The notes: a model not told the origin generated them from the letters alone. Counted from the stretch's first letter, positions 16,450 through 58,746 are shown. The stretch is 64,000 nucleotides of DNA from Rhodothermales bacterium (GCA_965214485.1 CBDCBW010000015.1:338000-401999); one strand, 5' to 3'. Made by a program: numbers and translations.

Positions 16450-16453
16450 AGGG

Positions 16454-43235: not shown

Positions 43236-43366
43236 CCGCCTAACAGATTGCCACTCAGCCGCGAAGGGCTGACGGCACGGTGGTAGAACGGAGCGAAAGT
43301 AGCGCCGACGCTCAGGCGAGCCGAGAACGCTGACGCCCTTCGTCGGCTTGCGGCGGCGGGTTATGC
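43236..43366 (-). repeat. attC-like site A2
   Basis: Plus-strand boxes GCCTAAC ... GTTATGC. Arms TGCCACTCAGCC / TGCGGCGGCGG. Confidence 0.75.
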
Positions 43367-43684: not shown

Positions 43685-43702
43685 CAGGCAGGAGCACTCG
43701 CA

Positions 43703-43915
43703 TCAGGTGGTCGCGAGGACGGCGTCCTTCGCCAACGCCAGAAATGCAACCGCCTGCTCACGGCTGACGCTGGGAAACCCTTCTAAGAAGTAATCGAGCG
43801 GTCGGCCTGCCGCGAGATAGTCGAGGAGGTTCTGAACGGGGACGCGCGTGCCTTGAAAGACAGGCGTGCCTCCCAAGATGTCGGGGTCGGAATGGTAAAC
43901 TTGGTGCCTTTCCAT
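43703..43915 (-). CDS. DUF433-type antitoxin; cassette 11
   Basis: 70 aa from ATG 43915 (MERHQVYHSDPDILGGTPVFQGTRVPVQNLLDYL). The ILGG.PVF.GTRVP motif is typical of DUF433. Confidence 0.75.
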   Translation of the reverse strand: MERHQVYHSDPDILGGTPVFQGTRVPVQNLLDYLAAGRPLDYFLEGFPSVSREQAVAFLALAKDAVLATT

Positions 43916-44002
43916 CGGGTCTACGTGGCTGGCGGGTCTACGTGGCTGTTCGGAGAATCGAACGCCTTCTGCCACCTTTCCGATCCAGCACCGGCGCAGT
44001 TG

Positions 44003-44122
44003 CGGCATAACAGGGGGCCGCTCAGCCGCACAGCGCGGCGATTGAACGAGACAAAGTAGGTGGCAAGGTTCGGACGAGGCAAGACGGCGGAGCGCCGTGT
44101 CGGCCTGCAGCGGCGGTTATAC
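44003..44122 (-). repeat. attC-like site A3
   Basis: Boxes GCATAAC ... GTTATAC. Arms GGCCGCTCAGCC / CTGCAGCGGCG. Confidence 0.75.
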
Positions 44123-44130
44123 AGCCGGGG

Positions 44131-44724
44131 CTACATGCCGTCCTGATCCAGCCGGTACGCGAACACCCCGTTCATCTCACAGATGAAGGCGACGTACCGC
44201 TCGTCCGGCGAGAGCGTCAGGCTGTGACAGTTCTCAAACCCGCTCGTCCAGAGCGTCTCCGGTTCCGCGCCGGTCCGAGTTATCACGAACGCGGTGCTCA
44301 TGCCCTCCTGGTGTAGCTCGACGGAGGTACCCCCTTTGGTACGCATGGAGCGAGGGGCAAAGTTCGCGGCCTCCTGCCAGGCAGTGGCTTCGGGTGCTTC
44401 CGCGACAGACTCGCCCGACTGGAGGGCACCGAGCGGAAGATCACCCCGCCATGTCGCCCCGACAAGGGCAAGAGAGTCGAGGCGAACCGAATACCAAATC
44501 CCGGCTACGTTCGCAGCGAGCCGTGAGCCGTCTGGCGACCAGACCGGGAACTCGTCCACAGCTTGGGAGGGGACAATCAGCGCGGTGCTCGCTCCGAGGC
44601 GGGTGAGTTCAGCATCGAGGGATTGAAGAGTGTAGGAGGTGTCAGGCGGTGCATCAGCCTCCTTCTCTTGCGCAAAGGATGGGCTGGCAGCCAAGAGCAG
44701 TAGAGGGAGAACGAGTCTGTACAT
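44131..44724 (-). CDS. Secreted protein with PD40-like motifs; cassette 10
   Basis: 197 aa from ATG 44724 (MYRLVLPLLLLAASPSFAQ signal peptide). Motifs WSPDGSRLAA and LSPDERYVAF. The longer track ORF start would lie inside attC A4. Confidence 0.6.
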   Translation of the reverse strand: MYRLVLPLLLLAASPSFAQEKEADAPPDTSYTLQSLDAELTRLGASTALIVPSQAVDEFPVWSPDGSRLAANVAGIWYSVRLDSLALVGATWRGDLPLGALQSGESVAEAPEATAWQEAANFAPRSMRTKGGTSVELHQEGMSTAFVITRTGAEPETLWTSGFENCHSLTLSPDERYVAFICEMNGVFAYRLDQDGM

Positions 44725-44730
44725 TGGGAG

Positions 44731-44861
44731 GCTGTATAGCAGAGGGCTGCTCATCCGCCTAGGGCAAGCAGCACGAGGGTGGAACGAGGCAGTGTAAGCG
44801 GCGCAGGTTGCACGAGGCAAGACCGTGCAGCCCTTCGTCCGCCTGCAGCGGCGGGTTATAA
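44731..44861 (-). repeat. attC-like site A4
   Basis: Left box degenerate (GTATAGC), right box GTTATAA. Arms GGGCTGCTCATCC / CTGCAGCGGCGG. Confidence 0.65.
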
Positions 44862-45176
44862 TGCCACGCGGATTACGCGCCCCGGAGCCGCCTCCTGCAA
44901 CGCTGCGTTGATCGACGCCACCAACGGGAGCAGGTCATCGATGTCGTTGCTCACGGCCGAGAGCACGATCAGACACAGCTCGATCCCCGTCAGGTTCTGC
45001 TGATACTCGATCCCCCGGTCTATCGTCAGCAGCACGTCGAACTCCAAGGCCGCCAGCCGGAGCAGTGGGCCGTTCTTGATGCCGCCCCACCCACGCTCGG
45101 GCACCGTCAGCGCCTCCGCCTCCAGCGAGCACTTCAGCTTGCGCGGCAGGTTCTCGTCGAGCAGGACCCGGATCAC
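44856..45176 (-). CDS. DUF5615-type PIN-like toxin; cassette 9
   Basis: 106 aa. GTG start overlaps the antitoxin stop (GTGA). Sequence IRVLLDENLPRKLK. Its TAA stop lies inside the TTATAAC box of A4. Confidence 0.7.
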   Translation of the reverse strand: MIRVLLDENLPRKLKCSLEAEALTVPERGWGGIKNGPLLRLAALEFDVLLTIDRGIEYQQNLTGIELCLIVLSAVSNDIDDLLPLVASINAALQEAAPGRVIRVAL

Positions 45177-45385
45177 GCCTCAGCCACCAACTCCTGCTCA
45201 GCCAACTCGAGCAAGGCTTCGGCCTGCTCCCGGCTGACCGTGGGGAAATCGTCACGGAAGTCCTCGATCCGCTTCCCCTTGCGGAGGTAGACGAGCAGCG
45301 TGTCAATAGGCACGCGGGTGCCGGTGAAGACCGGCGTGCCGCCGAGGATTTCGGGATCGGAGTGGTAAACGTCAGTGCGCTTCAT
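45173..45385 (-). CDS. DUF433-type antitoxin; cassette 9
   Basis: 70 aa (MKRTDVYHSDPEILGGTPVFTGTRVPIDTLLVYL). Confidence 0.75.
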   Translation of the reverse strand: MKRTDVYHSDPEILGGTPVFTGTRVPIDTLLVYLRKGKRIEDFRDDFPTVSREQAEALLELAEQELVAEA

Positions 45386-45465
45386 CGCTTCGGCTCATAT
45401 CGTTTCAGGTTGCTCGCCTGACTTCAAACGCCCCTGCTCCCGTTCGGATTCAGCGCGTCGGGAGT

Positions 45466-45598
45466 GGCCGTATAACAGATGGCCGCTCACCCGCGCAGGG
45501 CAAGCAGCACGATGGTCGGACGAAGCTACGGAAACGCAGACGTTCGGACGAGCCGAAAACGCTCGCGCCCTGCGTCGGCGTGCAGCGGCGGGTTATGT
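45466..45598 (-). repeat. attC-like site A5
   Basis: Boxes GTATAAC ... GTTATGT. Arms GGCCGCTCACCC / GTGCAGCGGCGG. The IS481-like element is inserted about 17 nt beyond its right box. Confidence 0.8.
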
Positions 45599-45680
45599 GC
45601 ACGGGCGGTACAGACCGGGCTGATGGTTTACACAATAGTCCAGGCACATGGTTTACACGGACACCCTTCCGTGAGTTGCC

Positions 45681-46878
45681 ATGCCCTTCCAGACTACCGA
45701 CCCGCCTATGGAGCGCGCCCGCCTCGTCGCCGCTCACCTCGACGGCCTCTACTCTGTCGCCGAACTCGCCGACCGCTTCTCGGTCTCCCGGCCCACCGTT
45801 TCTCGGTCTCCCGGCCCACCGTTTCTCGGTCTCCCGGCCCACCGTCTACAAGTGGATCGAGCGATACGCTGAGGGTGGCACCGAGGCGCTCCTCGACCGT
45901 AGCCGAGCCCGACATACCCAGCACGCTAAGACCGACCCGGAGGCGGAGCGCCTGCTCATTGAGGCCCGGCGGGCGCACCCCACCTGGGGCGCACGCAAGC
46001 TGCTGCCCTACCTCGCCCGGCGGCACGAGGGCGTCCGCTGGCCTGCGCCGTCTACGGCAGCGGCCATCCTCCAGCGCCACGGGCTGACGAAGACGCGCCG
46101 CAAGCGCCGGGTGCCGAAGCACCCCGGCTCCGCCCCGCTGGTGACGACGGCCCCCAACGAGGTCTGGACGGCCGACTTCAAAGGCCAGTTCAAGACCCGC
46201 GACGGGGTGTACTGCTACCCGCTGACGGTCTGCGACGCCCACTCGCGCTTTGTGCTCGGCTGCACCGGCCTGCCATCGGTCAAGCAGAAGGGCGCGAAGG
46301 ATCAGTTCGAGCGCCTGTTCCAGAAGTACGGCCTGCCCGAGGCGATCCGTAGCGACAACGGCGTACCGTTCGCCACGCAGGCGCTCTGCGGCCTGAGTCG
46401 GCTGAACGTGTGGGGGCTCAAGCTCGGAATCGGGCACGACCGGATCGCACCAGGGCAGCCTCAACAGAACGGACGCCACGAGCGGATGCACAAGACCCTG
46501 AAGGCCGAGACGGCACGACCACCCGAGCGTGAGATGGCACGGCAGCAGGTGCGCTTCGACGGCTGGCGCACGGAGTTCAACGACGAGCGCCCGCACGAGG
46601 CCCTCAGCTATGAGACTCCCGCTTCACTCTACGTGGCCTCGCCCCGCGCAATGCCCGACGTGCTCCCGAAGCCGGAGTACCCCGGCCACTTCGAGGTGCG
46701 CTGGCTCTCGAAGAGCGGCAACATCAAGTGGAAGCGGCAGCAGCTCTTCGTCAGTCAGGCGCTGGCGCACGAGTGGGTCGGGCTCGAGGAAGTCGCCGAC
46801 GGGGTGTGGAGCTTGTACTTCTACGACCGGCTGTTGGCGCGGCTTGACGAGCGCTCGGGGCTAAGGCTTCGGCCGTGA
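45681..46878 (+). pseudogene. IS481-family transposase (HTH + rve integrase core), frameshifted by a 23-bp tandem triplication
   Basis: MPFQTTDPPMERARLVAAHLDGLYSVAELADRFSVSRPTV (frame of 45681) continues as YKWIERYAEGGTEALLDRSR... only in the +1 frame after 45844. The core contains WTADF...D...RSDNGVPF...E. Confidence 0.8.
45776..45844 (+). repeat. Perfect 23-bp tandem repeat x3 (TTCTCGGTCTCCCGGCCCACCGT) inside the transposase gene
   Basis: Read directly at 45776-45798, 45799-45821 and 45822-45844. Two extra units add 46 bp, which shifts the frame by +1. Confidence 0.95.
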
Positions 46879-46935
46879 GGGGTGTAAACGATGTGGTCAG
46901 ACAAAACTGTAAAGGAACTGACCGGCTCCTACAGG

Positions 46936-47769
46936 TCAGACTTCGTACAGATCGTGGAGGAGTTGTATGGTGTCCCGTGCGAACTCTCGGGCCTCAGACT
47001 TCGATACAGTTCGGTTCCCGTGTACGATGCGGCTCAGGTCAGCGTAGAGATCGCTGATCGGCCCCCGGAATTTCTTGAAGTGATTGCTCCTGTCCAACAG
47101 CGCCCGGAGGTCGGCAGGTTGCATCTGATAATCCTCAGGAATGCGGAAACTCCGGTTCTGCTCTCGCGCTTTTCGCTCGTAGTACGACTTGGTGATGCCG
47201 TAATTCTGGTGCTCAGGGTCGAAGAAGCCTTCGAGTTGACACAGGTGGCGCAGCGCAATCTCAATCACCGTTCGGCAAAGGACGCAAACGGCGAGGTACT
47301 GCTCGAAGGCGTAGCACTGCCGCATCTCCTGCAAGAAGGAGCCGAACTCGGTGGGGGTGTCGTCAGCGCGAGCTACAAGCGCGCCCACTTCCAACATGCC
47401 GGAGACGTATTCGTAGTGGCTGTACCACGGGAAGAAGTGCTCCTCCGCAAGCTCGTCCAACTCGTCGAAGGTGTGCTCGTCATCGAAGAGGTCTGAGAGT
47501 GGAGTGTCCGAGACTACCTCTTCCAGAGGGAGCTTCTTGCCGAGCACGATCCTCTGGACGGTCGCTCGCACATCCCGCGACGCATCATCGGGCAGGAGCG
47601 CAGCCGGTGAATCGAGGAAGTGCTGTTTGATCGAGCGCTTGATCTGACCGTGCTCCTCGACCAGCGCACCGAGCGGCTTGAAGTCCTTCTTGTCGAACGC
47701 CAGAGACAGTGCGTCCGGGAACTCCTGCTCAATCTGCCGGAGGCGTTCGATCTGCTCAGCGAAGTCCAT
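46936..47769 (-). CDS. Hypothetical protein with a DUF4145/HEPN-like C-terminal region; cassette 8
   Basis: 277 aa. The helical C-terminus (CRTVIEIALRHLC ... LYADLSRIVHGNRTVSKSEAREF) is reminiscent of DUF4145/Abi-type HEPN. This is a recall-level assignment only. Confidence 0.5.
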   Translation of the reverse strand: MDFAEQIERLRQIEQEFPDALSLAFDKKDFKPLGALVEEHGQIKRSIKQHFLDSPAALLPDDASRDVRATVQRIVLGKKLPLEEVVSDTPLSDLFDDEHTFDELDELAEEHFFPWYSHYEYVSGMLEVGALVARADDTPTEFGSFLQEMRQCYAFEQYLAVCVLCRTVIEIALRHLCQLEGFFDPEHQNYGITKSYYERKAREQNRSFRIPEDYQMQPADLRALLDRSNHFKKFRGPISDLYADLSRIVHGNRTVSKSEAREFARDTIQLLHDLYEV

Positions 47770-47791
47770 CAGTGGGCACGGTGGGAAGGAA

Positions 47792-47914
47792 GCATAACAG
47801 GTTGCGCTTCAGCCGCGCCGGAACGCGACCGTGGAGTGGAAAGCTACGATGAGTGCTAGCACACCGACGGCAAAACCGCACAGCCCGGCGTCGGTCTGCA
47901 AGCGCGGGTTATAC
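47792..47914 (-). repeat. attC-like site A6 (divergent arms)
   Basis: Boxes GCATAAC ... GTTATAC. Arms GTTGCGCTTCAGCC / GGTCTGCAAGCGCGG still pair, so the structure is conserved rather than the sequence. Confidence 0.7.
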
Positions 47915-48472
47915 CGCCGGGCTTGGCAGTTTTTGTATAGCAAGACCTCGTCCTGATACCCAATCAACGTATTCCCCCCATCCCCCCACTTGAAATACAA
48001 CCTCCACTTGGTCCATTCTCGATAGGTAATTAAGCACGTTCCGATGTTCCGGCTTGTCAGCGAAGCGGATAGACATCCTCGTCACGGACCAAGGAATTCG
48101 AGAGGAATCCTGGTGGTAGATAGCAGATAGCTTCACCTCACCAGCAAAGGTGCTGATGTCATCAACAACCATCTTCGCGGCGGTAACAGGATTAGAAAGG
48201 TCGCAATTATCGCCTGTCAGCGGGTAATCATTCGCCCGAATTGAAGTCATACTGGAATGCCTCTCAGATATGTCGAGTAGTTCTTGCAGCAGTTCAGGAG
48301 CAGGTCGAAAATCATTGCCAGTGGAGATCGTCAAGGCAACCAACCGATCCTTCTCCCTTTGTTGAATGTCCTTCAGTCGTTTGGTTTCGGAGCGCGCCTT
48401 CCGAGTCGCTAACGCTTGCAGATAAAAGGCTAACGCTATACTGGCAACTAAAATAGTTAGGAAAAAGAGCAT
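47909..48472 (-). CDS. Membrane-anchored orphan protein; cassette 7
   Basis: 187 aa. N-terminal TM helix MLFFLTILVASIALAFYLQAL. Lower-GC sequence. Its TAA stop lies inside the GTATAAC box of A6. Confidence 0.6.
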   Translation of the reverse strand: MLFFLTILVASIALAFYLQALATRKARSETKRLKDIQQREKDRLVALTISTGNDFRPAPELLQELLDISERHSSMTSIRANDYPLTGDNCDLSNPVTAAKMVVDDISTFAGEVKLSAIYHQDSSRIPWSVTRMSIRFADKPEHRNVLNYLSRMDQVEVVFQVGGWGEYVDWVSGRGLAIQKLPSPAV

Positions 48473-48487
48473 AGATCAGGACGCGAG

Positions 48488-48619
48488 GCGGTATAACAGA
48501 CGGCCGCTCACCCACGCAGGGCAAGCAGCACAATGGTTGGACGGGGCAACGTAGACACCGATGCTCGGACGAGCCCAGAACGCTTGCGCCCTGCGTCGGC
48601 GTGCAGCGGCGGGTTATAC
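48488..48619 (-). repeat. attC-like site A7
   Basis: Boxes GTATAAC ... GTTATAC. Arms GGCCGCTCACCC / GTGCAGCGGCGG. A second stem is CGCAGGGCAAGC / GCTTGCGCCCTGCG. Confidence 0.8.
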
Positions 48620-48674
48620 AGAATCATTCTTGGTACCTCTGTTCAGGCTAAATAATATTTGATATTTAAGGCTT

Positions 48675-49727
48675 CTAAAATAGCGTAGTCTGCTCAACTG
48701 ACACTTCTGTTTCCGTTGCGCCGTCACCCGAAATAGCCGGGTCAAGCTCATCAAAGCGGAACCGGGAGCTTTCGAGGTACTCTTCCTCAAGCTCGAAGGC
48801 GAGGTAACGGCGGCCCATTTCCTGCGCCACCTCGCCGGTCGTGTTGCTCCCGGCGAAGGGATCAAGCACGAGATTACCTTCTTCAGTAGTAAGGCCGATG
48901 ATGAACTCGGGGAGCGCCTTCGGGAAGCGGGCAGGATGCCGCTTGGCTCCGGTCTCGCGGCACCGCCGCTGATAGCGGTCGTTGCTGGACGTGTTCGACG
49001 CCGCTACGACATTGACGGGGACGGGTTCACCGATCTCGTGCTCAAAGGCGTCATCCTCTAGGATGTTTGGCGGAATCGCGCCGCCGTTGTTCTTTCCGAA
49101 CTTGTCTGAGATGTCGTGTTCGCTCGGGCGGAGCTTCGGCGTGTAGCCGTTCTTCATCAGGTGCTTCTGCGCCTTGCTGTAAGGCTTCAGCACACTCCGG
49201 TTCGTCACTTTCCCGTCCTTCTCATCAACGACGGCAGAGGGGCGAAGCCACCAAACGGTGTTGACTGCATCCTTGACACGGATGCGGCGGACGGTCACCC
49301 ACTCGGCAGGCGTCGGCAGCTTGGCCGGATTGTACCAGTAGAGTTCTTGCGCGAGGAAGAAACCGAACTCCCCGCCTTCCTCGACTGGCTTGCACAGCCG
49401 AAGCAGAAACTCGTAATGGTAGAGGCTGCGATACGGTAGCCCTTTGATCCACGTACCGCCTAAGTCAATGACGAGCGAACCGTCGGGTTTAAGGATGCGC
49501 TTGAACTGCTCTGCAAAGGGTCTAAACCACTCGACGTACTTCTCAGACGTGACGTTGCCGTAGCCTTTCTGTCGGAGTAGCGCAAACGGCGGCGACGTGC
49601 AGATGAGGTCCACGGACTCATCGCCAAGCTGCTTCATCAGTTCCACGCTGTCGCCGAGGTAGGCCGCGCCAGCTTCCGTGGTGTAGTAAGGCTGGGCGTC
49701 GCCGAGGGTTGGGAGCGGCATGGGCAC
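48675..49727 (-). CDS. Beta-class DNA methyltransferase (N4-cytosine or N6-adenine); cassette 6
   Basis: 350 aa. Motif IV TSPPF lies near the N-terminus and motif I DPFAGSNTTG near the C-terminus. The first ATG is at 49721; the track start at 49727 is GTG. Confidence 0.85.
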   Translation of the reverse strand: MPMPLPTLGDAQPYYTTEAGAAYLGDSVELMKQLGDESVDLICTSPPFALLRQKGYGNVTSEKYVEWFRPFAEQFKRILKPDGSLVIDLGGTWIKGLPYRSLYHYEFLLRLCKPVEEGGEFGFFLAQELYWYNPAKLPTPAEWVTVRRIRVKDAVNTVWWLRPSAVVDEKDGKVTNRSVLKPYSKAQKHLMKNGYTPKLRPSEHDISDKFGKNNGGAIPPNILEDDAFEHEIGEPVPVNVVAASNTSSNDRYQRRCRETGAKRHPARFPKALPEFIIGLTTEEGNLVLDPFAGSNTTGEVAQEMGRRYLAFELEEEYLESSRFRFDELDPAISGDGATETEVSVEQTTLF

Positions 49728-49756
49728 CTCTTTAGATTGATTGCGCGATGGAAAGG

Positions 49757-49882
49757 CTTGACAACGTCAAGCGGGGAGCGCTACGTTAACGGCAATTTAT
49801 GCGCTCGCGCCAAAGGGTAGGGCATCTACCTTCGGGCCGAGCGCGCTGAACCATACTACGACAACGCCTTGACTAAGTCAAG
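49757..49882. promoter_or_regulatory. Divergent R-M control region with two copies of the palindrome CTTGAC-n3-GTCAAG
   Basis: CTTGACAACGTCAAG at 49757-49771 and CTTGACTAAGTCAAG at 49868-49882. The second copy overlaps the putative TTG start of the HTH gene. Confidence 0.6.
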
Positions 49883-50111
49883 CAGTTTTTCGCCAGAGGA
49901 CTTCAAGCCGGACGATTGGGTTTCGCAATCGGAGGCAGCGGACATCCGCGGCGTCTCTCGACAGGCGATCCACCAACTCGTGCAGAAGGGCCGGTTCCGC
50001 ACCTACGCTGTGGCCGGACGGACGCTCGTGCTACGGGAGGATGTGGTACAGTACGAACCGGACAAGGGAGGGCGTCCGCCCACCTCGGACGAGACCGAAC
50101 AAGGGGCATAG
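49869..50111 (+). CDS. Small HTH DNA-binding protein (excisionase/MerR-like HTH; candidate controller of the R-M unit); cassette 6
   Basis: 80 aa. WVSQSEAADIRGVSRQAIHQLVQKGRF reads as an HTH. The only in-frame start is TTG at 49869. Confidence 0.55.
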   Translation: MTKSSSFSPEDFKPDDWVSQSEAADIRGVSRQAIHQLVQKGRFRTYAVAGRTLVLREDVVQYEPDKGGRPPTSDETEQGA

Positions 50112-50112
50112 C

Positions 50113-51567
50113 GTGGCATCTGCAAAGAAGGAGAGCCAAATCCCCGTCGGCACGGGCTTCAGCCCCGATCTCGTGAGCCTGCCAGACTACGTTCGCGCCG
50201 CCGTTCGGCACAGCGGGGATTTGGACGCGCTGGAAGAAGCGCTCAACACACCGCCCGTCTGGATCGGCAAGAAGCTGAGGACGACGCGGCGCACCCGCCG
50301 CCACCCGATGGAAGCGGGGGCGCAGTACGGACTGCTCACGCCGGGGAGCTACGAAGCAACCGACCTCACGCGAAAGCTCGCCCGGCTGAGCGAGGACGAT
50401 TTGTACCAAGCGTTTGCGCGGCACATCGTTCTGAACGTCGGTGGTCTCCGTGTCGTGGAGGGAGCGCAGGAGATGCATCTTGACGGGCGGAAGGTCACCG
50501 GCGACTCGCTCGCGCAGTACCTCTCGGATCAGGGCTTCCGGGTCAGCGTCCACAACACCGCGATCAACACGATGCGGATGTGGCTGGCGAAAGCAAAGCT
50601 GTTCCCCGAAAGCGGGCGTGGGGCAGGAGCATGGCGACCGGACCCGGCGGTAAAGGAGCAACTTGTGGGGATGGACGACGATGCTATCGCGGCGCTGGCA
50701 GCATTGACGCCCGAACAGGTCGCGTTTGCTAAAACGCTCGCTCGCCTCGACCCGGACGACTGGACACCGGCGGCAGAGGTACGGGACCTTGCCGAAGCCG
50801 CTGAGGGCGTGCGGATTGGTCGCGGCTCGTTGCCGAACGAAGTGCTCCGTCCATTGGAGGCAGCGGGGCTGATCGAGTACCGAACGGGCGGCACCAGCAG
50901 CGGGAAGACTTCGGAGTTGAGAACGACGGAGGCGTTTCGGGCCGAGGTGCTGGAGCCGTTTCTGGAGCGGACGCTGAAAGACCTCGACCCGGCACTGACG
51001 GCCTACTACCGCACCCGGCCCGCCGACATTTACACTGCTCTCGGCTCGAAGGACAAGCACGAAAAGGGGCAGGCGCTTGAAGCGTTCGCCGTGATGGTGA
51101 TGCGTCTGCTCGGACTCCGGTTCGTCGGCTGGCGGCGGCGGGCCGAGGAAACCGGATACAGCGAAGTGGACGTGCTGATGGCCGGGCTGTTTGGGGCGGT
51201 GCCTACGACGTGGCAGGTGCAGTGCAAAAACACGCCGTCGGGACAGGTCCGCTTGGAGGATGTAGCGAAGGAAGTCGGGCTGATCCCGCTTATGCGGGCA
51301 ACGCACATCCTCGTGCTGGCAAACGCGCCGTTCACCCGCGATGCCCGGCGCTACGCCGACGCGATCATGCAGAACTCGTCGGTTACGGTTTTTCTGCTGG
51401 ACCGGACGGACTTCGAAGCAATTCGGGAGAGTCCCGCTAACCTGGGTCGCATTCTTCAGGCACAGGCCGAGCGCATCCGCGATCTCAAGATGGCAACGCC
51501 GGTATGGCGAGAAGGCGATGCACGCGGGGGACCGGATCAACCCTCGCTCGGTCTACCGCTGGGCTGA
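50113..51567 (+). CDS. Restriction endonuclease-like protein with a C-terminal Mrr-type PD-(D/E)xK domain; cassette 6
   Basis: Likely GTG start at 50113, just after the HTH gene stop. The C-terminus (GYSEVDVLMAG...WQVQCKNTPSGQV) fits the Mrr_cat D...(E/Q)xK pattern. Its stop abuts attC A8. Confidence 0.65.
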   Translation: MASAKKESQIPVGTGFSPDLVSLPDYVRAAVRHSGDLDALEEALNTPPVWIGKKLRTTRRTRRHPMEAGAQYGLLTPGSYEATDLTRKLARLSEDDLYQAFARHIVLNVGGLRVVEGAQEMHLDGRKVTGDSLAQYLSDQGFRVSVHNTAINTMRMWLAKAKLFPESGRGAGAWRPDPAVKEQLVGMDDDAIAALAALTPEQVAFAKTLARLDPDDWTPAAEVRDLAEAAEGVRIGRGSLPNEVLRPLEAAGLIEYRTGGTSSGKTSELRTTEAFRAEVLEPFLERTLKDLDPALTAYYRTRPADIYTALGSKDKHEKGQALEAFAVMVMRLLGLRFVGWRRRAEETGYSEVDVLMAGLFGAVPTTWQVQCKNTPSGQVRLEDVAKEVGLIPLMRATHILVLANAPFTRDARRYADAIMQNSSVTVFLLDRTDFEAIRESPANLGRILQAQAERIRDLKMATPVWREGDARGGPDQPSLGLPLG

Positions 51568-51568
51568 T

Positions 51569-51695
51569 TCTGTATAACAGAGGGCCGCTCACCCGCAGAG
51601 GGCCGCGCGGCGGTGGGACGAGGCAACGTAGACGCCGAGGTTCGGACGAGGCAAGACCGTGCAGCCCTTCGTCGGCGTGCAGCGGCGGGTTAGGC
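51569..51695 (-). repeat. attC-like site A8
   Basis: Boxes GTATAAC ... GTTAGGC. Arms GGGCCGCTCACCC / GTGCAGCGGCGG. Confidence 0.8.
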
Positions 51696-51713
51696 AGAAT
51701 GCGGGCAGTGGAG

Positions 51714-53066
51714 TTAGTTCAGAGTTGCCCTCAGCGAAGGGAAGAAGGCTGAAACCGGATTGTCTACAGAGTCCGGATCGTCAAGAGCTTTCCGGACCTG
51801 GCTGGCGATCTCAGACTTGTACACCTCAAGCCTTGGCACCAGTGCAAAGATGCTCGAGGTATCAATCTGAATCGTCCTCACTTGATTGAGGTCGAACGGA
51901 ATGTGGTCTGCTGCCCGCATGATCTGGACAGTCGGCAGACGACAGGCGTGCCTCAAGGCCAACTCGTAGAATACGTTGGGGTTATGATAAGACAGATCTG
52001 CGATGACTAACTTTGACTTGAGGATGTACTCGATGATCTGGGCCGTGATGATACCAGGCTCCGCGATATAGTCCGCACGCACCAGCTTCAGTCCAAACGG
52101 CTCCAAGGCGGGCTCGATAATAGAGCCCATGAAGAGATCTGAGTGCTGACGCTGCTCCGATTCCTCATCACCTATCGGCGTGATGTAGAAACAAATATGA
52201 TCGAAGTCAGCGCTTGAACTGGCGGGTTTGGCGCGACCTGTCGCAACTACTCCGTCAGGGGCCGGGCGTCCACCCCGGCTTGGGGCACGAACGGCGCGCT
52301 CCAGTCCTTCAAGGGCGTGGTCGAACGTCAAGAGGCGTTCAGCACCTGAAAGAGTTCTGAGAAGGCCCAGATACCGAGCGTTGACGATGAATATGTCAAC
52401 GCACTCGTTCGATCTCTGCTCTGACATACCGGTCTCACGTAACGCGTCGCGCAAAAGAGAACTCGACGGCATTCGTGAGCCTGCAAATGTCTCATAAAGC
52501 AACTTGAACGGCTCGACACCCATTATCCCAAGCTCAATCCGAGCCTTAGTCCGCTCGTGCTCGGACACGTCGTCGCTGGTCGCCTTGTCACCTTCGGGAG
52601 TCAACTGAAGATGCTCCGCTTTATGACTCCCCTTCACAAGACCGTACTTGCTCGCGTTCGTGAGAAGCTGCCGACTCTGACTACTCTCAGGAGACTTGCC
52701 GAACTCATCGAACAAGGTGAGACGACGGACCTGGTTGCTTCCTGCAGTCTCTTGGATGAACTGCGCAAAGCTCACGACCTCCTCAAAGGAGGCATTAGGG
52801 TAGGGTAGCGGCGTTCGCTGTCTGGGCTTCTTTGCGGCAGGCTTCTTCTTATCAGCAGGCTTCTTCTTCCGTGTCGTCTTCTTCCCAGCATTGGCCTTTG
52901 GCTTCCGGCTGGCGGGTTTCTTAGCCGTAGCCTTTTGAGCCGACTCCGCCTTCTTCGCTGGCTCCGCTGCCTCAGTTGACTGTTCGCCCTCCGACATGGG
53001 CTCGGCGTCAGAGGACTTCGACTCTGATTCCCCGAAGAGGTTGGTGCCATTCGCTCCTACTTCCAT
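51714..53066 (-). CDS. Three-part protein: Lys/Pro/Ala-rich basic tail, two winged-helix-like repeats, and a C-terminal nucleoside 2-deoxyribosyltransferase/TIR-like domain; cassette 5
   Basis: 450 aa. Basic tail KKPASRKPKANAGKKTTRKKKPADKKKPAAKKPRQR. C-terminus CFYITPIGDEESEQ...VRADYI...LVIADLSYHNPNVFYELALRHA matches the NDT-like pattern (recall-level). Confidence 0.6.
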   Translation of the reverse strand: MEVGANGTNLFGESESKSSDAEPMSEGEQSTEAAEPAKKAESAQKATAKKPASRKPKANAGKKTTRKKKPADKKKPAAKKPRQRTPLPYPNASFEEVVSFAQFIQETAGSNQVRRLTLFDEFGKSPESSQSRQLLTNASKYGLVKGSHKAEHLQLTPEGDKATSDDVSEHERTKARIELGIMGVEPFKLLYETFAGSRMPSSSLLRDALRETGMSEQRSNECVDIFIVNARYLGLLRTLSGAERLLTFDHALEGLERAVRAPSRGGRPAPDGVVATGRAKPASSSADFDHICFYITPIGDEESEQRQHSDLFMGSIIEPALEPFGLKLVRADYIAEPGIITAQIIEYILKSKLVIADLSYHNPNVFYELALRHACRLPTVQIMRAADHIPFDLNQVRTIQIDTSSIFALVPRLEVYKSEIASQVRKALDDPDSVDNPVSAFFPSLRATLN

Positions 53067-53131
53067 TGGACTAACCGGTCTGTTTCAAGAGCCTGAACAA
53101 GTTCGCGTAGAAGATACTCGGTCGGGGCATT

Positions 53132-53261
53132 CTGCCTAACAGAGGGCCGCTCACCCGCAGAGGGCCGCGACCAGGATGGACTCGAAGATATGACGGCGTG
53201 GGCGCTCGACCGCAGGCAAGACGACCGAGGCCCTATGTCGGCGTGCAGCGGCGGGTTAGCA
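53132..53261 (-). repeat. attC-like site A9
   Basis: Boxes GCCTAAC ... GTTAGCA. Arms GGGCCGCTCACCC / GTGCAGCGGCGG. Confidence 0.8.
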
Positions 53262-53628
53262 CGCAGGCGTTGAGGGCACACCGTTGGAACTGCGAAGCTT
53301 ACCCCCCTCCTACCTACGACGCGGGTCCGCCCGCCTCGGTGAGACTCTGGACACGGCTGCGTAGCGGCGGTGACCGCACTCGCTCTGGATTGGGTGCCCG
53401 GCTGTGGGGGCCGAGCAGACGGAGGAACTGCGACGCCGAGCTCGCACGGCTGGCAGAACCTCCCGCGACGCTGGTAGGCACCCACGAGCACACGCTCACC
53501 CGAGGCCGCCTCTGCCGGGCCGTGGAGGCGAGCACGGGCCACTCGGTCCACAAGAACACCGAGGCTGGCAAGGGCGCGAGTGGTTCCGCCTTGCAAGGAA
53601 ACGGACTCCGCCCCACGACGAGGGCCTG

Positions 53629-53759
53629 CGTGCTAACAGAGGGCCGCTCACCCGCGCAGGGCAAACAGCACAATGGTCGAACGAAGCTACGGAAGCGCAG
53701 GCGTTCGGACGAGCCGAGAACGCTCACGCCCTGCGTCGGCGTGCAGCGGCGGGTTAGCC
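53629..53759 (-). repeat. attC-like site A10
   Basis: Boxes TGCTAAC ... GTTAGCC. Arms GGGCCGCTCACCC / GTGCAGCGGCGG. Confidence 0.8.
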
Positions 53760-54569
53760 GGACCCGTGGGGCACGGCAGTTGGGGACAGCATCTCTTGAA
53801 CCTCCTCAATCGTGTACGGTGGAGACTTCCGGTGGATTACGGCGTGGCAGTTCGGACAGACTGGACGGAGGTCGTCTACCGGATCTACCTCGTACCGCTC
53901 GCCCAACTCTGACACCGGGCGGAGGTGATGGACGTGGATGAAGCCCTCGGTGGCGGCACCGTAGGCACGGGCGAAGTCGAACCCGCAGACGATGCACGCA
54001 ACGCCGTAGTAGGCAAGGCACCGCCGCCGTGCCTCCGGGTTGCGCTCGTACACGTTGAGGCTGACGGCGCGCGGGGTGCCCTCGTACAGCGGGCGCGGCT
54101 CAGCGCTCCGGTTAGAATCCGGCGGGGAGGCCGAGCCGATGACGGAACCCCACTCCCGTTCCAGCGCTTCCGCAACGTGAGGCGGGATCGAGGTACCCGA
54201 CGCCTGGGTGTTCCAGTAGACGTCAGCGAACTCGGGCGCGTCCAGCCGCTCGCGCGGGAGGATCGGATCAGTCTCGGGATCTTGCAGCGCGTCGAACTCC
54301 ACTTCGACGAACCAGCCTGGCGTGTCGCGCTCCGGGTCCCAATGATCGTCTTGGTACGACGGCGTTGTGACGGAGCCGCTGGCGATGATCCCGCGTGGTT
54401 CGAGACCCTGGCGGAGCAAGAAAACGCGGTCGCCCTGCTCGATCCGTTTCGTGTTTCCGCAACTCCAACGACGGACCAATCGCCCGCGCTCGGCAACCTC
54501 GTTTGCGTCGGCGGCGAGGCCGTCCCACTTCCACCGCTTCGGGTTCCACGTCAGGAGATACGTCGCCAT
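53754..54569 (-). CDS. PUA-like (EVE/ASCH-type) domain fused to an HNH nuclease (candidate modification-dependent restriction enzyme); cassette 3
   Basis: 271 aa. N-terminus YLLTWNPKRWKW...GDRVFLLRQG..GIIASG. C-terminal HNH CIVCGFDF...FIHVHHLRPV...CPNCHAVIH. Its TAA stop lies inside the GGCTAAC box of A10. Confidence 0.75.
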   Translation of the reverse strand: MATYLLTWNPKRWKWDGLAADANEVAERGRLVRRWSCGNTKRIEQGDRVFLLRQGLEPRGIIASGSVTTPSYQDDHWDPERDTPGWFVEVEFDALQDPETDPILPRERLDAPEFADVYWNTQASGTSIPPHVAEALEREWGSVIGSASPPDSNRSAEPRPLYEGTPRAVSLNVYERNPEARRRCLAYYGVACIVCGFDFARAYGAATEGFIHVHHLRPVSELGERYEVDPVDDLRPVCPNCHAVIHRKSPPYTIEEVQEMLSPTAVPHGSG

Positions 54570-54590
54570 AGCACAGCGATTCGGAGGGTA

Positions 54591-54720
54591 CGGCTAACAG
54601 TTGACCGCTCAGCCGCGTGGGGCAAACAGCACGGAAGTTGAACGAAGCGAAGGTAGCGCCGACGCCAGAACGAGCCGAGAACGCTCACGCCTCACGTCGG
54701 CCTGCAGCGGTGGGTTATGT
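54591..54720 (-). repeat. attC-like site A11
   Basis: Boxes GGCTAAC ... GTTATGT. Arms GACCGCTCAGCC / CTGCAGCGGTGG. Confidence 0.75.
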
Positions 54721-54745
54721 GGCGTACAGTAGATGTCCACTCATT

Positions 54746-55441
54746 CTAATGTCCGAACCGATACGAACCTAGGTCGATCAGGTCTAACTCCTCGATTCGA
54801 ATCGCCATCGCCTCGTAGGAGACGCCGAAGAGTTCAGCAATTGGCTTCACGGGGTTCCCGGCGAACATTCCAGCCTTTGCCAAGCGAAGAGAGAGTGGCC
54901 GCATATCGGGACTTGTAGCTAGCAGAGGTCCCAAATCTTTAATCCCGAGGGAGAATGCCGAGTCGTTGGATACGATAAACCGATCAGATCCGAAGATCGC
55001 TCGGAATGCCTCTCTCATCACGGACTCGGGCATCAAGAAGTATGCGGCGAACTTGTCGGCTTCATACTCCACTTGTGGGCGGTGGCCCCGAATCAGCGAG
55101 CCATCAAGGCCACGATCTCTGAACTGTTTGTCTGCTTTGTGGAGAATCGCATGACCAAGCTCATGCGCCGCCGTGAAAGCCTGGACCACTGGTACGAACT
55201 GCTCTGATACGGCAGCGTATCGCTTCGGTTTGTCGATGAACCCAGCCACCTCGGTTACGTCGCCACCATCGATGATCTGTCCCAAGAATGGAGCGCGCTC
55301 AAAAGTGTAGCCGAAAGCATGAAATGCGGAGGGCGGATCAAGAACATCGATGACGCCTCTGTCGGTACCGTCTGTCCATATGTCTGACCTATTTCTCCAA
55401 AGGTCGTTCTGGACGTTTTTAGCGATGGAGTGAACGACCAC
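54746..55441 (-). CDS. ImmA/IrrE-family zinc metallopeptidase; cassette 2
   Basis: 231 aa. HEXXH motif AAHELGHAILH followed by EYEADKFAAYFLMP. The GTG start is embedded in the IS200-like end hairpin, so the true N-terminus is uncertain. Confidence 0.75.
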   Translation of the reverse strand: MVVHSIAKNVQNDLWRNRSDIWTDGTDRGVIDVLDPPSAFHAFGYTFERAPFLGQIIDGGDVTEVAGFIDKPKRYAAVSEQFVPVVQAFTAAHELGHAILHKADKQFRDRGLDGSLIRGHRPQVEYEADKFAAYFLMPESVMREAFRAIFGSDRFIVSNDSAFSLGIKDLGPLLATSPDMRPLSLRLAKAGMFAGNPVKPIAELFGVSYEAMAIRIEELDLIDLGSYRFGH

Positions 55442-56020
55442 CCCCAGAGGGGGTGGCTTCTGTATTCCTCACGGCGACCCCTGAAAGGGGATCGCGCGCT
55501 CACGAGAACAGATCGTAGTTGGCCTGCTGCCGCTCCTGTTTCTTCTCCTCCTGCTCCTGATACTGAACGTAGCGCCGGATCAGATCCTCGTTCAAACCCA
55601 CCGTGTTCACAAAGTACCCTCGCGACCAGAAATGATTGCCCCAATACGGCTTCTTCCGCAGACGGGGGTAGCTCTTGAACAGCTTGATCGCCAGCTTCCC
55701 CTTCAGAAAGCCCATGAACTGCGAGACCGCCAGCTTCGGTGGGATCGAGCAGAGCAGGTGGATGTGGTCGGGCTGCACGCTTAGCTCCATCACCTCGACC
55801 TGCTTCCACGCACACAGCACCCGGATGTCGTGCTCGACGGCCTCTTTGATAGCCCCTTCGAGCACACGGTAGCGGTACTTCGGCGTCCAGACGATGTGGT
55901 AGTTGCACTGGTAGACCGTGTGCGTGAGCTTTCGATACTTCGCGTTGCGCTCTGCCATGCTGCCAGTTTACGGCATAGCCGAACACACATCACCACCGTC
56001 AAAGACGGTGGGTTGCTACG
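55440..56020 (-). mobile_element. IS200/IS605-family element (tnpA only; ends approximate) inside cassette 2
   Basis: The Y1 transposase gene is flanked by subterminal hairpins: CCACCGTCAAAGACGGTGG at 55994-56012, and GACCCCTGAAAGGGGATC and CCACCCCCAGAGGGGGTGG at 55437-55492. Confidence 0.7.
55500..55958 (-). CDS. tnpA: IS200/IS605-family Y1 transposase TnpA
   Basis: 152 aa. YHIVWTPKYRYRVL, the HUH motif (DHIHLL) and the catalytic-Tyr region WSRGYFVNTVG. Confidence 0.9.
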   Translation of the reverse strand: MAERNAKYRKLTHTVYQCNYHIVWTPKYRYRVLEGAIKEAVEHDIRVLCAWKQVEVMELSVQPDHIHLLCSIPPKLAVSQFMGFLKGKLAIKLFKSYPRLRKKPYWGNHFWSRGYFVNTVGLNEDLIRRYVQYQEQEEKKQERQQANYDLFS

Positions 56021-56769
56021 CTAAACTCAATCTCCGAGTCAGTATACTTCGAGTCGATTAGACTCTTGTCTCGAATGAGGTTGATGTCCAATCCGAAGCC
56101 GTCATTCGAAGCTTGTGCGCCAGACCTCAACTCCAAGACTCTGGTTTGCAGTTCAGTGCCGATGAGGCGAGCGCGTTCCTCCAACTTTTCCGCGCGAGCT
56201 AGCAACTCCACGATCTCGCTCTCCCCGTTGAAGCTCTTGAGGTTGAGGTACACGATCGAAATAGCGCCGGTCGCTCCAGACAGGGCGGAGTCGATAGCCA
56301 CCTCCGAGTCGCCTCGGGCAGCCTTAAACCCAATGTCGAATACGGTGACGGCGTGTTCGGCGAGCGCCAAACAGCTCTCAGCTATTTCAAGAGGAATTTC
56401 ACTGGCAACATGCAACTCATCCAAAGCCTGCTTCCCATACCTCCATCTCTGGGCGGGATCGGTCTCGGCGTTTCTTGCAAGTCGCGCCTTGATGACCTTG
56501 TCAAACTGAACTGAGTCCTCGTCGAACGCTTCCCACAGCTTGGGCTCGATGTCATTGGTGATGGACTCCTCGATACTGTTAAGCTCGGCTACGGCTTCTT
56601 CATGTTCATGGCCGCCACGTCGCTTCGAAAGATCGATGACGGTTTTCGTCAGAGCGCACGAGATCAGGCCGAGCAGCGCGGCTGCGCTACCCGAACCGGG
56701 CTTGTGCCCGCCAGCGCCGAACTTCCTCAGAAGCTCGTCTAGGGGAAGCTTTGCTAGATCGACTGCCAT
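55999..56769 (-). CDS. Cyclodeaminase/cyclohydrolase (FTCD C-terminal) family protein; cassette 2. Its C-terminus may be altered by the IS200 insertion.
   Basis: 256 aa. N-terminus LPLDELLRKFGAGGHKPGSGSAAALLGLISCALTKTVIDLS matches the FTCD_C pattern (PGGGSAAAL). The last 7 codons run into the IS end. Confidence 0.6.
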   Translation of the reverse strand: MAVDLAKLPLDELLRKFGAGGHKPGSGSAAALLGLISCALTKTVIDLSKRRGGHEHEEAVAELNSIEESITNDIEPKLWEAFDEDSVQFDKVIKARLARNAETDPAQRWRYGKQALDELHVASEIPLEIAESCLALAEHAVTVFDIGFKAARGDSEVAIDSALSGATGAISIVYLNLKSFNGESEIVELLARAEKLEERARLIGTELQTRVLELRSGAQASNDGFGLDINLIRDKSLIDSKYTDSEIEFSVATHRL

Positions 56770-56837
56770 GCCTCTCTGATCTGTGAACCTCGGGAGCTAA
56801 CGCACGCATCCGTAGCAGGTTGCCTTGTGCTCCCGCT

Positions 56838-56970
56838 AGCCACATAACAGACGGCCGCTCAACCGCGAAGGGCAAACGGCATGATGGTGAATCAGAGCGC
56901 AGGATACGCCGACGGTCGGACAACGCGAAAACGCTGACGCCCTTCGTCGGCTTGCAGCGGCGGGTTATGT
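56838..56970 (-). repeat. attC-like site A12
   Basis: Boxes ACATAAC ... GTTATGT. Arms GGCCGCTCAACC / TTGCAGCGGCGG. Confidence 0.8.
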
Positions 56971-57540
56971 GCACGGCTTGTAGCGCGCGGTGATTACGAT
57001 CTCCTGATCGAAGCGAAAACGACCGATCCCTCGGCTCCGCATCCTCATCCGCATCTCGGAGGTCAAGGGAATACCGTTTACTTGCTCGAACGTGATCTCG
57101 GACTCCACCGGCTCCATCAGGAAGCCCGCTAGTCCCGACAGCTCCGGCGAATGCACGATGACACTCTTCAACTCGGCTGGGTCCTTCTGAAACGTGAAGT
57201 CGGCCCCTGGCACCTCAGCCTCAGCCTCCGAGGGTTTCAGGCGCACCGCGCGGACCCGTAGCTCGTTCGACTGGTGGCTAGGAAGCTCGTGGCGCTTGAA
57301 CTCGTCGCCGCTCAACATGGGGAGGAGGTCTTCTTCCTCCGCGTTGGCTTCGGGATCGTCCAGCCGCTGCTCTCCTTTCTCGACCGAGGACGCAGGACCG
57401 AAAGCGCCGTGCTTGATCTGCTTGGATTCGCTGACGGCACATACGCCCCGGACGGCTTCCTGACGACGCTCGAACTGAGCGACGACTTCGGCGATGATCT
57501 GGCGGGCGCCGCCGCTCAGCAGGGTGTCAGTTTGGCTCAT
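56965..57540 (-). CDS. Orphan acidic protein; cassette 1 (junction-proximal)
   Basis: 191 aa from ATG 57540 (MSQTDTLLSGG), 10 nt after the terminal GTTATGTGCAC box. Its TAA stop lies inside the ACATAAC box of A12. Confidence 0.6.
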   Translation of the reverse strand: MSQTDTLLSGGARQIIAEVVAQFERRQEAVRGVCAVSESKQIKHGAFGPASSVEKGEQRLDDPEANAEEEDLLPMLSGDEFKRHELPSHQSNELRVRAVRLKPSEAEAEVPGADFTFQKDPAELKSVIVHSPELSGLAGFLMEPVESEITFEQVNGIPLTSEMRMRMRSRGIGRFRFDQEIVITARYKPCT

Positions 57541-57546
57541 AGGTGA

Positions 57547-57557
57547 GTGCACATAAC
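57547..57557 (-). other. Terminal cassette junction (half-site GTGCACATAAC; minus strand GTTATGTGCAC)
   Basis: Perfect 11-bp reverse complement of the right box of A12 (GTTATGTGCAC at 56964). No attC arms follow it, so this is the candidate attI-side junction of the first cassette. Confidence 0.6.
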
Positions 57558-57714
57558 CAGTGATTGAGCGGAAGCGCGCGGCATAGCGTGTGTCGGCGAA
57601 AGCCGAACCGTTCGGCATAGCATAACGCGATCTGCAAAAAGACGCAAGACTACTGCCTTTCCTCCGTGCTATGCCGACTCAGGCCCGCGCTATGCCGAAA
57701 CAAGGTCGCCCTCG

Positions 57715-58746
57715 CTATTCGTTCCACCCGGAGCGTGGCTGCGGGTCGCGGCGCTCGCCGTAGGGGTGAGTCGCGGTCTGCGTCTCCTCGCCCTGCTCCT
57801 CCTTGCCGGCACCCTCGTCGGTGGAGGGCGTCGCGGCCTCGCGTACGACCTTCTCGGTCTCGACGACCCGCACGGCGTCCTCGTCCGGGCGGATGTGTGC
57901 GCCATAGCGCTGCGCCCAGATTTGCGTAAACTCGGCCCCGACGAGCAGGATCAGAGCCGTGTAGTAGATCCACACGAGGATCACGACGATGGAGCCGGCA
58001 GCCCCGAACGCCTCGCCGGGGTCCGAGCGCCCGAGGTAGAACCCGATCAGAAACTTCCCGAGCACGAACAGCAGCGCCGTCACGAGACCGCCCACCCACA
58101 CGTCGCGCCACGTGATCTGCGCGTCGGGCAGCACCTTGAAGATCGCGGCGAAGAGGAACGTGAACAAAGCGAGGCTGACGGCGATTTCGCCGACCCACGC
58201 GAACGCCGCCCCGACCGGCCCGAGCGAGGCCTCGATCTGACCGAACAGCCCCGAGAGCAGCGCGCTCGCCGCGAGCGAGACGATGAGGAAGAACGCGATC
58301 GTGAGCACCATCCCGAACGAGAGCACGCGCTTCGTGAGGAAGTTGACGACCCCGCTCCCGGATTCGTCGGGCCTGACCTCCCAGGCGCGGTTGAGCGACT
58401 GCTGAAGCTGGACGAACGCCCCCGTCGCGCCGAAGAGCAGCGCGAGCAGCCCGAACAGTTTGCCCACCAGCGATCCCCCGCCGAGGTCGCCCGCGTTCTC
58501 GATCATCGTCCGAATCTCCTCTGCGCCCCGCTCGCCGAGGAGGCCGCCGACCTGCCCCGTGATCTGCTCCTGCACGGTCTCCGCCCCGAAGACCGCGCCG
58601 GCTACGCCGACGAGGATGGCGAGCAGCGGCGGGAGCGAGAGCAGCGTGTAGTAGGCAATGGCCGCGCTCATGCTGGTGCAGTTGTCGTCGGCGACCTCTT
58701 GGCCGGTCTGTTTGACGAGGGCGAGGGCGTTGGAGAACGAAATCAT
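57715..58746 (-). CDS. YihY/BrkB-family membrane protein
   Basis: 343 aa from ATG 58744-58746 (MISFSNALALVKQTG). SAAIAYYTLLSLPPLL and six TM segments are typical of YihY. Confidence 0.8.
   Translation of the reverse strand: MISFSNALALVKQTGQEVADDNCTSMSAAIAYYTLLSLPPLLAILVGVAGAVFGAETVQEQITGQVGGLLGERGAEEIRTMIENAGDLGGGSLVGKLFGLLALLFGATGAFVQLQQSLNRAWEVRPDESGSGVVNFLTKRVLSFGMVLTIAFFLIVSLAASALLSGLFGQIEASLGPVGAAFAWVGEIAVSLALFTFLFAAIFKVLPDAQITWRDVWVGGLVTALLFVLGKFLIGFYLGRSDPGEAFGAAGSIVVILVWIYYTALILLVGAEFTQIWAQRYGAHIRPDEDAVRVVETEKVVREAATPSTDEGAGKEEQGEETQTATHPYGERRDPQPRSGWNE

Follow-up and report, generated by a model that had tools for sequence, protein, structure and literature searches.

An attI-like candidate site without an adjacent integrase gene at the head of a Rhodothermales cassette array

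The cassette array and its first cassette

The stretch of DNA that we analysed (64 kb, hereafter the window; approximately 70% GC, with proteases that carry C-terminal Por_Secre_tail domains) contains an intact yihY gene, a short intergenic region, here referred to as the head, and an array of cassettes on the same strand as yihY. The YihY protein is 100% identical to P0001, and the closest YihY proteins with a source name are labelled Rhodothermales or Bacteroidota. The genes and sites are:

57715-58746, minus strand: yihY, intact (YihY/BrkB family, 343 aa; Pfam PF03631, E 2e-51)
57558-57714, minus strand: head module, between the yihY stop and the first cassette
56840-57556, minus strand: first cassette, a 191-aa ORF (57540-56965) and its attC (56972-56840, 133.8 bits)
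42424-56972, minus strand: array of 12 attC sites belonging to one family of about 123 nt
42424-42555, 43236-43368, 44003-44124, 44732-44863, 45468-45600 and 47790-47916, minus strand: attC sites 1-6
48489-48621, 51570-51697, 53132-53263, 53629-53761, 54590-54722 and 56840-56972, minus strand: attC sites 7-12
40714-40768, minus strand: probable truncated terminal attC (15 bits, E 0.07 with the covariance model R1)

The alignment of the 12 attC repeats shows a single family that begins with TAAC (5') and terminates in GTTA (3'); the repeats fold as imperfect hairpins with compensatory changes and were used to build the covariance model R1. Moreover, in seven of the 12 cassettes the cassette start after G|TT and the cassette's own R'' end show perfect 10-nt complementarity. 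This is an integron-type cassette array that is read on the minus strand, as was originally deduced: all 12 model matches (89-148 bits) are on that strand, the unpaired attC bases are in the 5' (R''-L'') arm and the cassette ORFs nearest the head (53754-57618) all have the same direction. The head is therefore at the high-coordinate end. At the other end of the array, a convergent ABC-F gene terminates in the probable truncated attC, its stop codon overlapping the R'-like GTCAGGC.

Several other elements were noted in and around the array. At its distal end there is an IS5-family transposase gene (41469-42251) and a 31-nt inverted repeat (40906-40990). An IS481-family transposase gene (rve + HTH; 45580-46878, plus strand) lies inside the array, adjoined by three 23-nt tandem repeats (45768-45845), and the cassette ends that flank it (45595 and 47795) are not complementary, which is consistent with disruption. 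Closer to the head, an IS200/IS605-family Y1 transposase gene (55500-55958, minus strand) has a hairpin on either side (55441-55999), i.e. CCACCCCC-AGAG-GGGGTGG at about 55440-55458 and CCACCGTC-AAA-GACGGTGG at about 55993-56011; it is part of a 2.1-kb "cassette" between FTCD_C-like and M78-peptidase genes and may have replaced or split an attC. The cassettes also carry defence-like genes (48675-51567 and 53754-54569), including an N6/N4 DNA methylase gene (minus strand) and a gene for an EVE-HNH protein, and an Mrr-like restriction endonuclease gene on the strand opposite to that of the methylase. A dip in GC content to 0.58-0.64 at 15000-17000, in the 70% GC background, is far from the array.

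The first cassette starts at position 57556, with the crossover between G57557 and T57556. Its start reads G|TTATGTGCAC and its own attC begins with GTGCACATAAC; specifically, GTTATGTGCAC (minus strand, 57557-57547) is the exact complement of the R'' end GTGCACATAAC (56964-56974). The original prediction had placed the junction at this 11-mer, 157 bp from the yihY stop, and both stand (the stop codon is at 57715-57717), but the predicted distance of 10 nt to the ATG does not: the ATG at 57540 is 16 nt past the G|TT crossover and 6 nt past the 11-mer. That the ORF begins at 57540 is supported by the cassette boundary and by homologues of 191 and 193 aa (P0123 and P0125); the ORF product has no Pfam match. 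The public gene call for this cassette (P0121; 217 aa, ATG at 57618, 56965-57618) spans the junction and two of the motif copies described below. As a point for annotation, this 217-aa call thus crosses a recombination junction and its start should be 57540.

Core-type repeats between yihY and the first cassette

The motif CGGCATAGC is present on the plus strand at 57579-57587 and 57613-57621 and on the minus strand at 57668-57676 and 57689-57697, that is, four copies in 119 nt, two direct and two inverted, at the places where they were originally noted. In the orientation GCTATGCCG, the head is built as follows (scores refer to the weight matrix described below):

57689-57697, plus strand: inverted copy 2 of GCTATGCCG, 21 nt from inverted copy 1; 9.14 bits
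57668-57676, plus strand: inverted copy 1 of GCTATGCCG; 9.14 bits
57619-57647, minus strand: weak sigma-70-like promoter candidate, TTGCGT (57647-57642), 17-nt spacer, TATGCT (57624-57619)
57613-57621, minus strand: direct repeat 1 (DR1), GCTATGCCG, 34 nt upstream of direct repeat 2; 9.14 bits
57579-57587, minus strand: direct repeat 2 (DR2), GCTATGCCG, starting 30 nt upstream of the R box; 9.08 bits
57562-57568, minus strand: candidate L box CTCAATC, 4 nt (ACTG) before the R box, from the alignment of three heads
57551-57557, minus strand: R box GTTATGT, 10.7 bits, complementary to the R'' of the cassette's own attC

Four copies within 119 nt are far above chance, since dinucleotide-preserving shuffles of the 64-kb window (n = 100) give 0.35 +/- 0.56 copies of CGGCATAGC per window, and none of the 100 reached five copies, a fifth copy being present in the window at 55971-55979. 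The two motif pairs in the head are nested, as predicted, but they do not share a centre: the outer pair is centred at 57638 and the inner pair at 57644.5, and the arms are offset by 34 nt and 21 nt on the two sides. The inverted repeats extend to 10 bp (CGGCATAGCG) and 11 bp (TCGGCATAGCA), and the inverted copies have only the 9-11-nt motif in common with the direct copies. Direct repeat 1 overlaps a second GTTATGC core, which had been predicted at 57619-57625 and is indeed present, one base off, at 57626-57620 on the minus strand.

The resemblance of these motifs to integron core boxes was scored using a 10-nt weight matrix built solely from the 24 R'/R'' core boxes of the array's 12 attC sites. 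Its top five matches in the head are the R box and the four motifs (9.08-9.14 bits); among 92,542 background positions outside the array a fraction of 7.6e-5 scores as high as the motifs, and about 0.03 such matches would be expected in the head compared to the five found, R box included. Since the array's own matrix scores them at about 9.1 bits, the motifs appear to be core-type (GTTRRRY-like) boxes in which C replaces the second T (GCTATGCCG versus GTTATGCCG). Variants of this kind exist within the array itself: the cassette between 43363 and 44008 has GTTATGCCGC, one base away from GCTATGCCGC, as its core box, and the attC at 44732-44863 has GCTATAC as its R' box.

Other identities of the motif were considered and rejected. 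The fifth copy, 12 nt upstream of the start of the IS200-type tnpA, was examined as a possible remnant of a head, but its similarity to the head stops at the 9-mer and it is possibly due to chance. Reading the motif as a REP or MITE element does not agree with its distribution, because it is not dispersed in the window, and GCCGAACCGTTCGGC (57602-57616) as a LexA/Cheo-box has the wrong spacing and a palindrome that is broken in the related genome L004 (see below).

As to expression of the first cassette, no terminator-like site was found between yihY and cassette 1, and since both are on the same strand transcription would probably reach the cassette by read-through from yihY. A scan of the head with a promoter consensus gave no promoter above threshold. 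The TTGCGT-17-TATGCT candidate, which is below that threshold and whose -10 element overlaps direct repeat 1, might represent a weak promoter inside the site and may add to the expression of the cassette; the aligned places in L004 read TTCCGC-17-TATGCT and TTCCGC-17-TATGTT.

Related loci and the search for an integrase gene

Downstream of yihY in five other orthologue loci (L001/L002, L003, L006, L197 and L198, with YihY identities of 75%, 74%, 81%, 75% and 74%, respectively) the module, the motif and the cassettes are all absent. The upstream Smr / peptidase C26 / 611-aa synteny is common to array-less relatives, and the Smr / peptidase C26 part was seen as in the window in L001/L002, L003, L006 and L198. 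Within 0-100 nt of yihY these loci have a convergent rhodanese gene (L001/L002, L003 and L198) or a 46-aa convergent gene fragment (L006), while in L197 an amidohydrolase gene follows 18 nt after yihY. The alternative raised with the original prediction, that the sequence is simply the terminator or operator of yihY, would have had array-less relatives keep it; the opposite is the case, as the array-less orthologous loci lack it altogether, and the module is therefore not a yihY terminator/operator. We also note that L006 has a core-like site, GTTATCCGGA (2705-2714, 13.3 bits), 22 nt after the yihY stop and with no array, which overlaps the stop of the convergent 46-aa partial gene (probably rhodanese by synteny) and could be due to chance or be an empty insertion point.

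One related genome, L004 (GCA_038746285.1, contig JBCDKT010000079, 13 kb; YihY 79% identical), carries the head module twice, after yihY (8058-8230) and 2 kb downstream (10026-10196), with the window module being homologous to positions 8089-8221 and 10057-10187. Head 1 has the order TATGCTATGCCGAACG..., GCTATGCCGC..., CCTAAACACTG|GTTATACC, i.e. two direct motifs, a weak inverted box and a GTTAT junction as in the window, and is followed by a 149-aa cassette with matching ends and an attC that starts with GGAGGTATAACC. Head 2, which was found by the matrix scan, comes directly after the cobW stop and opens with a 31-nt copy of the yihY 3' end (QPRDGWNE-stop); it contains GTTATGGCG, 33 nt further GCTATGCCG and 30 nt further GTTATGCCG (start to start), and the DNA after it has 45-50% GC in a contig of 70% GC. 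By comparison with this copy, the module in the window may reach about 31 nt into the 3' end of yihY, to approximately 57745. The duplication in L004 could have originated through attI x attI recombination, through segmental duplication and cassette turnover, or through another element. The contig ends in a fragment of an HTH_23/28/29-domain gene that may belong to an IS481-like transposase.

In the alignment of the three heads the repeats are much better conserved than the sequence between them. Each L004 head has two matrix matches; DR1 is conserved in head 1 and is GTTATGGCG, with a canonical GTT core, in head 2. The DR1-DR2 spacing is 33 nt in L004 versus 34 nt in the window, and DR2 is 30 nt from the R box in all three. 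The nested symmetry, in contrast, is not a shared feature, as the inverted copies are specific to the window genome and only the two direct copies are conserved: inverted copy 1 falls in a 24-nt alignment gap in both L004 heads, and the position aligned to inverted copy 2 reads TTTCGCCGCTG, with no copy of the motif. Before the crossover the three heads read (C/T)T(C/A/T)AA(T/A)CA(C/G)TG|GTTAT, a stretch reminiscent of a degenerate inverted L box; the equivalents of the CTCAATC box, which we tentatively consider to be an L box placed like that of attI1, are CCTAAAC (head 1) and CTTAATC (head 2). After the crossover each head continues into different foreign DNA, and the right flanks of the module differ as well (ABC-F in the window, cobW in L004).

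Close homologues of the 191-aa protein of cassette 1 are present in two other assemblies. In L205 (90% identity) the cassette lies after nuoN and a 196-aa core gene, with the junction TACTGG|TTTGTGCAG (1190-1230), and in L206 (92% identity across 61% of the query) an HMG-CoA reductase gene stops 22 nt before it, the junction being CGCCAG|TTGTGTGCAC (7630-7680); in both an attC site of the R1 family follows. The three upstream flanks are mutually unrelated. The homology starts exactly at TT, direct evidence that 57557|57556 is a site-specific crossover of the IntI type, and the comparison shows that the same cassette recently came to occupy the first position at three different chromosomal sites. 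Neither L205 nor L206 has an attI-like module or accessory repeats at the insertion, so that the two are attG-type insertions; as the cassette was inserted at these two repeat-less sites, the repeats are not needed for insertion in this lineage. Taken together with the perfect end complementarity kept by seven of the 12 cassettes, the three sites argue for recent integrase activity and not for a decayed attI, a possibility raised in the original prediction.

No integrase gene was found next to the head, in keeping with the original prediction; its neighbour is the intact yihY. Specifically, a Pfam search of 30 ORFs (20 of them in the 38-64 kb part, at the array ends and inside the array) gave no tyrosine recombinase/Phage_integrase domain, while the same scan detected the IS5, IS481 and IS200 transposases. 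A tblastn search with an IntI1 sequence, used only as a homology probe, had no match in the 64-kb window or in the 13-kb L004 contig, and no intI pseudogene was found. A comparison of related genomes for an intI gene between yihY and the array had also been suggested, and none of the related loci that we compared has one there. Pattern scans of genome and metagenome contigs uncovered no locus with a homologous head beside intI: GCTATGCCG-N(15-40)-GCTATGCCG-N(10-25)-GTTA gave 70 matches in genome contigs, all chance or coding repeats and with neither the source genome nor that of L004 among them, and the 120 matches listed for metagenome contigs, using a looser, over-permissive pattern, were chance or repeats only. 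Scans of viral contigs and a plasmid BLAST gave nothing relevant.

Interpretation and comparison with known systems

On balance, our data tip slightly in favour of the 157 nt being an attI-type, double-stranded site with predicted accessory integrase-binding repeats, the integrase of the array being encoded elsewhere or having been lost very recently. The head is at the promoter-proximal end of the array, the first cassette is joined to it at the G|TT of a GTTRRRY-like core, and it carries boxes that resemble integrase-binding core boxes (9.1 bits, with conserved spacing), although the L box is weak. Position, crossover, core-like motifs and the conserved direct half, together with the fact that the head is not an attC, carry this reading. 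Of the two possibilities originally considered, an attI remnant or an operator, the attI part is thus preferred, given that the motifs fit the core-box matrix and that their spacing to the junction is kept in three module copies from two genomes, while the notion of a remnant is not; nor does any evidence point to a binding array for an unrelated regulator. Several points count against this reading: besides the two insertions of the same cassette at repeat-less sites, the motifs carry GCT and not GTT, the candidate L box is weak, and the two inverted copies are seen in this genome only. Moreover, an attI is by definition located next to intI, and the head is not adjacent to an intI of the same platform. 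For this reason we class the locus as a CALIN whose attI-like head has been preserved, and not as a complete integron.

If this is correct, the minus strand would run from the inverted core-type sites (57697-57689 and 57676-57668) through DR1 (57621-57613) and DR2 (57587-57579) to a weak inverted L box (57568-57562) and the R box (57557-57551), with cassettes entering between G57557 and T57556. The R and L boxes would be bound on double-stranded DNA by a tyrosine recombinase of the IntI type whose gene is located elsewhere in the genome, and this enzyme would also bind the GCTATGCCG repeats as accessory sites, as IntI1 does on DR1 and DR2 of attI1. The site would then be recombined with the folded attC sites of incoming cassettes.

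Could the head instead derive from attC sites, or act at the RNA level? As a single strand the window head folds with z = -2.5 into two stems of 10-11 bp with loops that are large (42 nt) and asymmetric (12 vs 25 nt), and CGGCATAGC...GCTATGCCG resembles RYYYAAC...GTTRRRY with a compensated change of AAC/GTT to AGC/GCT, so that the nested inverted repeats might be fossil attC sites, i.e. R''/R' pairs of decayed cassettes upstream of the first cassette. We consider this improbable, as model R1 had no match in the head on either strand at E<=10 with filters off, the stems are just 10-11 bp with large asymmetric loops, inner and outer pairs have one polarity in common, in contrast to L''/L' boxes, and the L004 heads keep the direct copies without inverted partners and fold no better than shuffles (z +0.9 and +1.8). 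There is no covariation across the head alignment either, the covariation term being positive (unfavourable), and the hairpin in the window is a consequence of the extra inverted copies and not a conserved feature. The same folds, together with the missing covariation, rule out an attC-like hairpin from GGAAC in yihY to GTTAT. The head thus has neither the hairpin and boxes of an attC nor a match to the family model and is, as expected of an attI, distinct from attC; the missing attC match, the unfolded L004 heads and the lack of covariation fit a module that would behave as a sequence-specific double-stranded site. Even less probable, to the point of being nearly dismissible, is an element of the yihY transcript such as a terminator, an attenuator or another 3'-UTR structure. 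The region does adjoin the yihY stop, on the same strand, and its inverted repeats can pair in RNA, but the RNA fold is unremarkable (z = -1.3; 22 of 200 shuffles fold as well), no Rfam family matched, nothing in the region corresponds to a terminator or a known RNA element, the region is missing from the five yihY orthologue loci and its inverted half is not conserved in L004.

The strongest rival, which we still regard as unlikely, is that the junction is an attG-type secondary site that seeded the array and that the GCTATGCCG repeats are unrelated to it, for example a transcription-factor operator for a promoter of the cassette or of the region downstream of yihY. Such sites need just GWT and about 18 bp of double-stranded DNA (bioRxiv 10.1101/2022.09.11.507474), L205 and L206 carry the same cassette without repeats or homology to the head, there is no intI in cis, and repeat 1 in each of the three heads shares bases with a -10-like TATGCT. 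What this leaves unaccounted for is that four sites in the window and two per L004 head fit the core-box matrix at a background of 7.6e-5, that the three heads have the same spacing of 30 nt to the crossover, that one repeat in L004 head 2 reads GTTATGG, a canonical core, and that insertion into the module has taken place on at least three separate occasions; a gene for a regulator is not evident beside it. About half as credible to us is that the module serves for the attachment of some integrative element other than an integron, with the 3' end of yihY as the target; the L004 heads would then be the attL and attR of this element, and the cassette array would simply be located within it or next to it. 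The copy of the yihY 3' end that opens L004 head 2 is a classic signature of 3'-end integration, low-GC DNA follows that head, and the right flanks of the module differ between the genomes. Against this, no integrase of any kind was seen near either head, the abutting DNA starts exactly at G|TT with cassette-type complementary ends, which is integron chemistry, and just about 1.8 kb, one cassette and cobW, separates the L004 heads.

Returning to the attI-type site, one extension of it is that a module of about 165 nt (the last 31 nt of yihY, DR1, DR2, the L box and the R box) could be a self-contained, portable landing pad, an attI acting in trans for an unlinked integrase that can itself be duplicated or moved. 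This is speculative and we would sooner doubt it than assume it. If true, one genome could hold several integrase-less arrays (compare the L004 heads 2 kb apart) and, with L205 and L206, the lineage would show intermediates on the way from a random insertion site to a co-evolved attI, while the extra inverted repeats would be a further elaboration giving a two-armed site. An evolution of random insertion sites into co-evolved attI sites has been speculated by Loot et al. (bioRxiv 10.1101/2022.09.11.507474). The preserved head without intI, its duplication in L004 and the coexistence with bare attG-like insertions of the same cassette are what make the locus worth noting; should the repeats bind an integrase encoded elsewhere, it would provide a natural system for studying the origin of attI and arrays that are serviced in trans.

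attI sites are known in detail for a few integron classes only, and CALINs are usually described without an upstream site. [quoted passage not shown] 2016, PMC4889954; IntegronFinder 2.0, PMC9024848); CALINs are common, and attI sites differ between integron classes (PMC4889954, PMC9024848). The locus agrees with this description (at least two clustered attC sites and no nearby integron-integrase) in having 12 attC sites of one family and a truncated thirteenth, no intI found in the 64-kb window, and IS elements within the array. It differs in that CALINs are defined by attC only, whereas here an insertion site has been kept, is conserved in a second genome and is apparently in use. The integron of Salinibacter ruber M1, the sole complete integron reported in the wider clade, there Bacteroidetes (PMC9024848), comes from the same wider clade as the window but has its own intI. 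With attG sites the head shares a chromosomal insertion outside a classical integron and beside host genes, a double-stranded nature and GWT at the crossover; it differs from them, as attG comprises about 18 bp without accessory repeats while here there are four core-like repeats, a conserved module of about 165 nt and repeated use.

The layout of the head resembles that of attI1. That site consists of a simple site, L and R, and the accessory IntI1-binding direct repeats DR1 and DR2, which are direct and core-like, with DR2 about 32 nt from the R box and about 19 nt between DR1 and DR2. Like attI1, the head lies at the start of the array, has its G|TT crossover in a GTTRRRY-type R box with a weak inverted box a few nt upstream, has a pair of direct core-like repeats upstream of this box, of which the nearer to R is at about 30 nt (compared with about 32 nt in attI1), and is not a folded single-strand site. 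Unlike attI1, it has no adjacent intI and no sequence similarity to attI1, its repeats are GCTATGCCG and not GTTRRRY, the DR1-DR2 distance is 33-34 nt versus about 19 nt, this genome adds two inverted copies, and the module borders on the 3' end of a housekeeping gene, which may even be part of it. Elements of this kind are already known, and the locus adds a new example and not a new kind, namely an integrase-less array with an identifiable insertion site that has an attI1-like layout, a different sequence and, apparently, current use.
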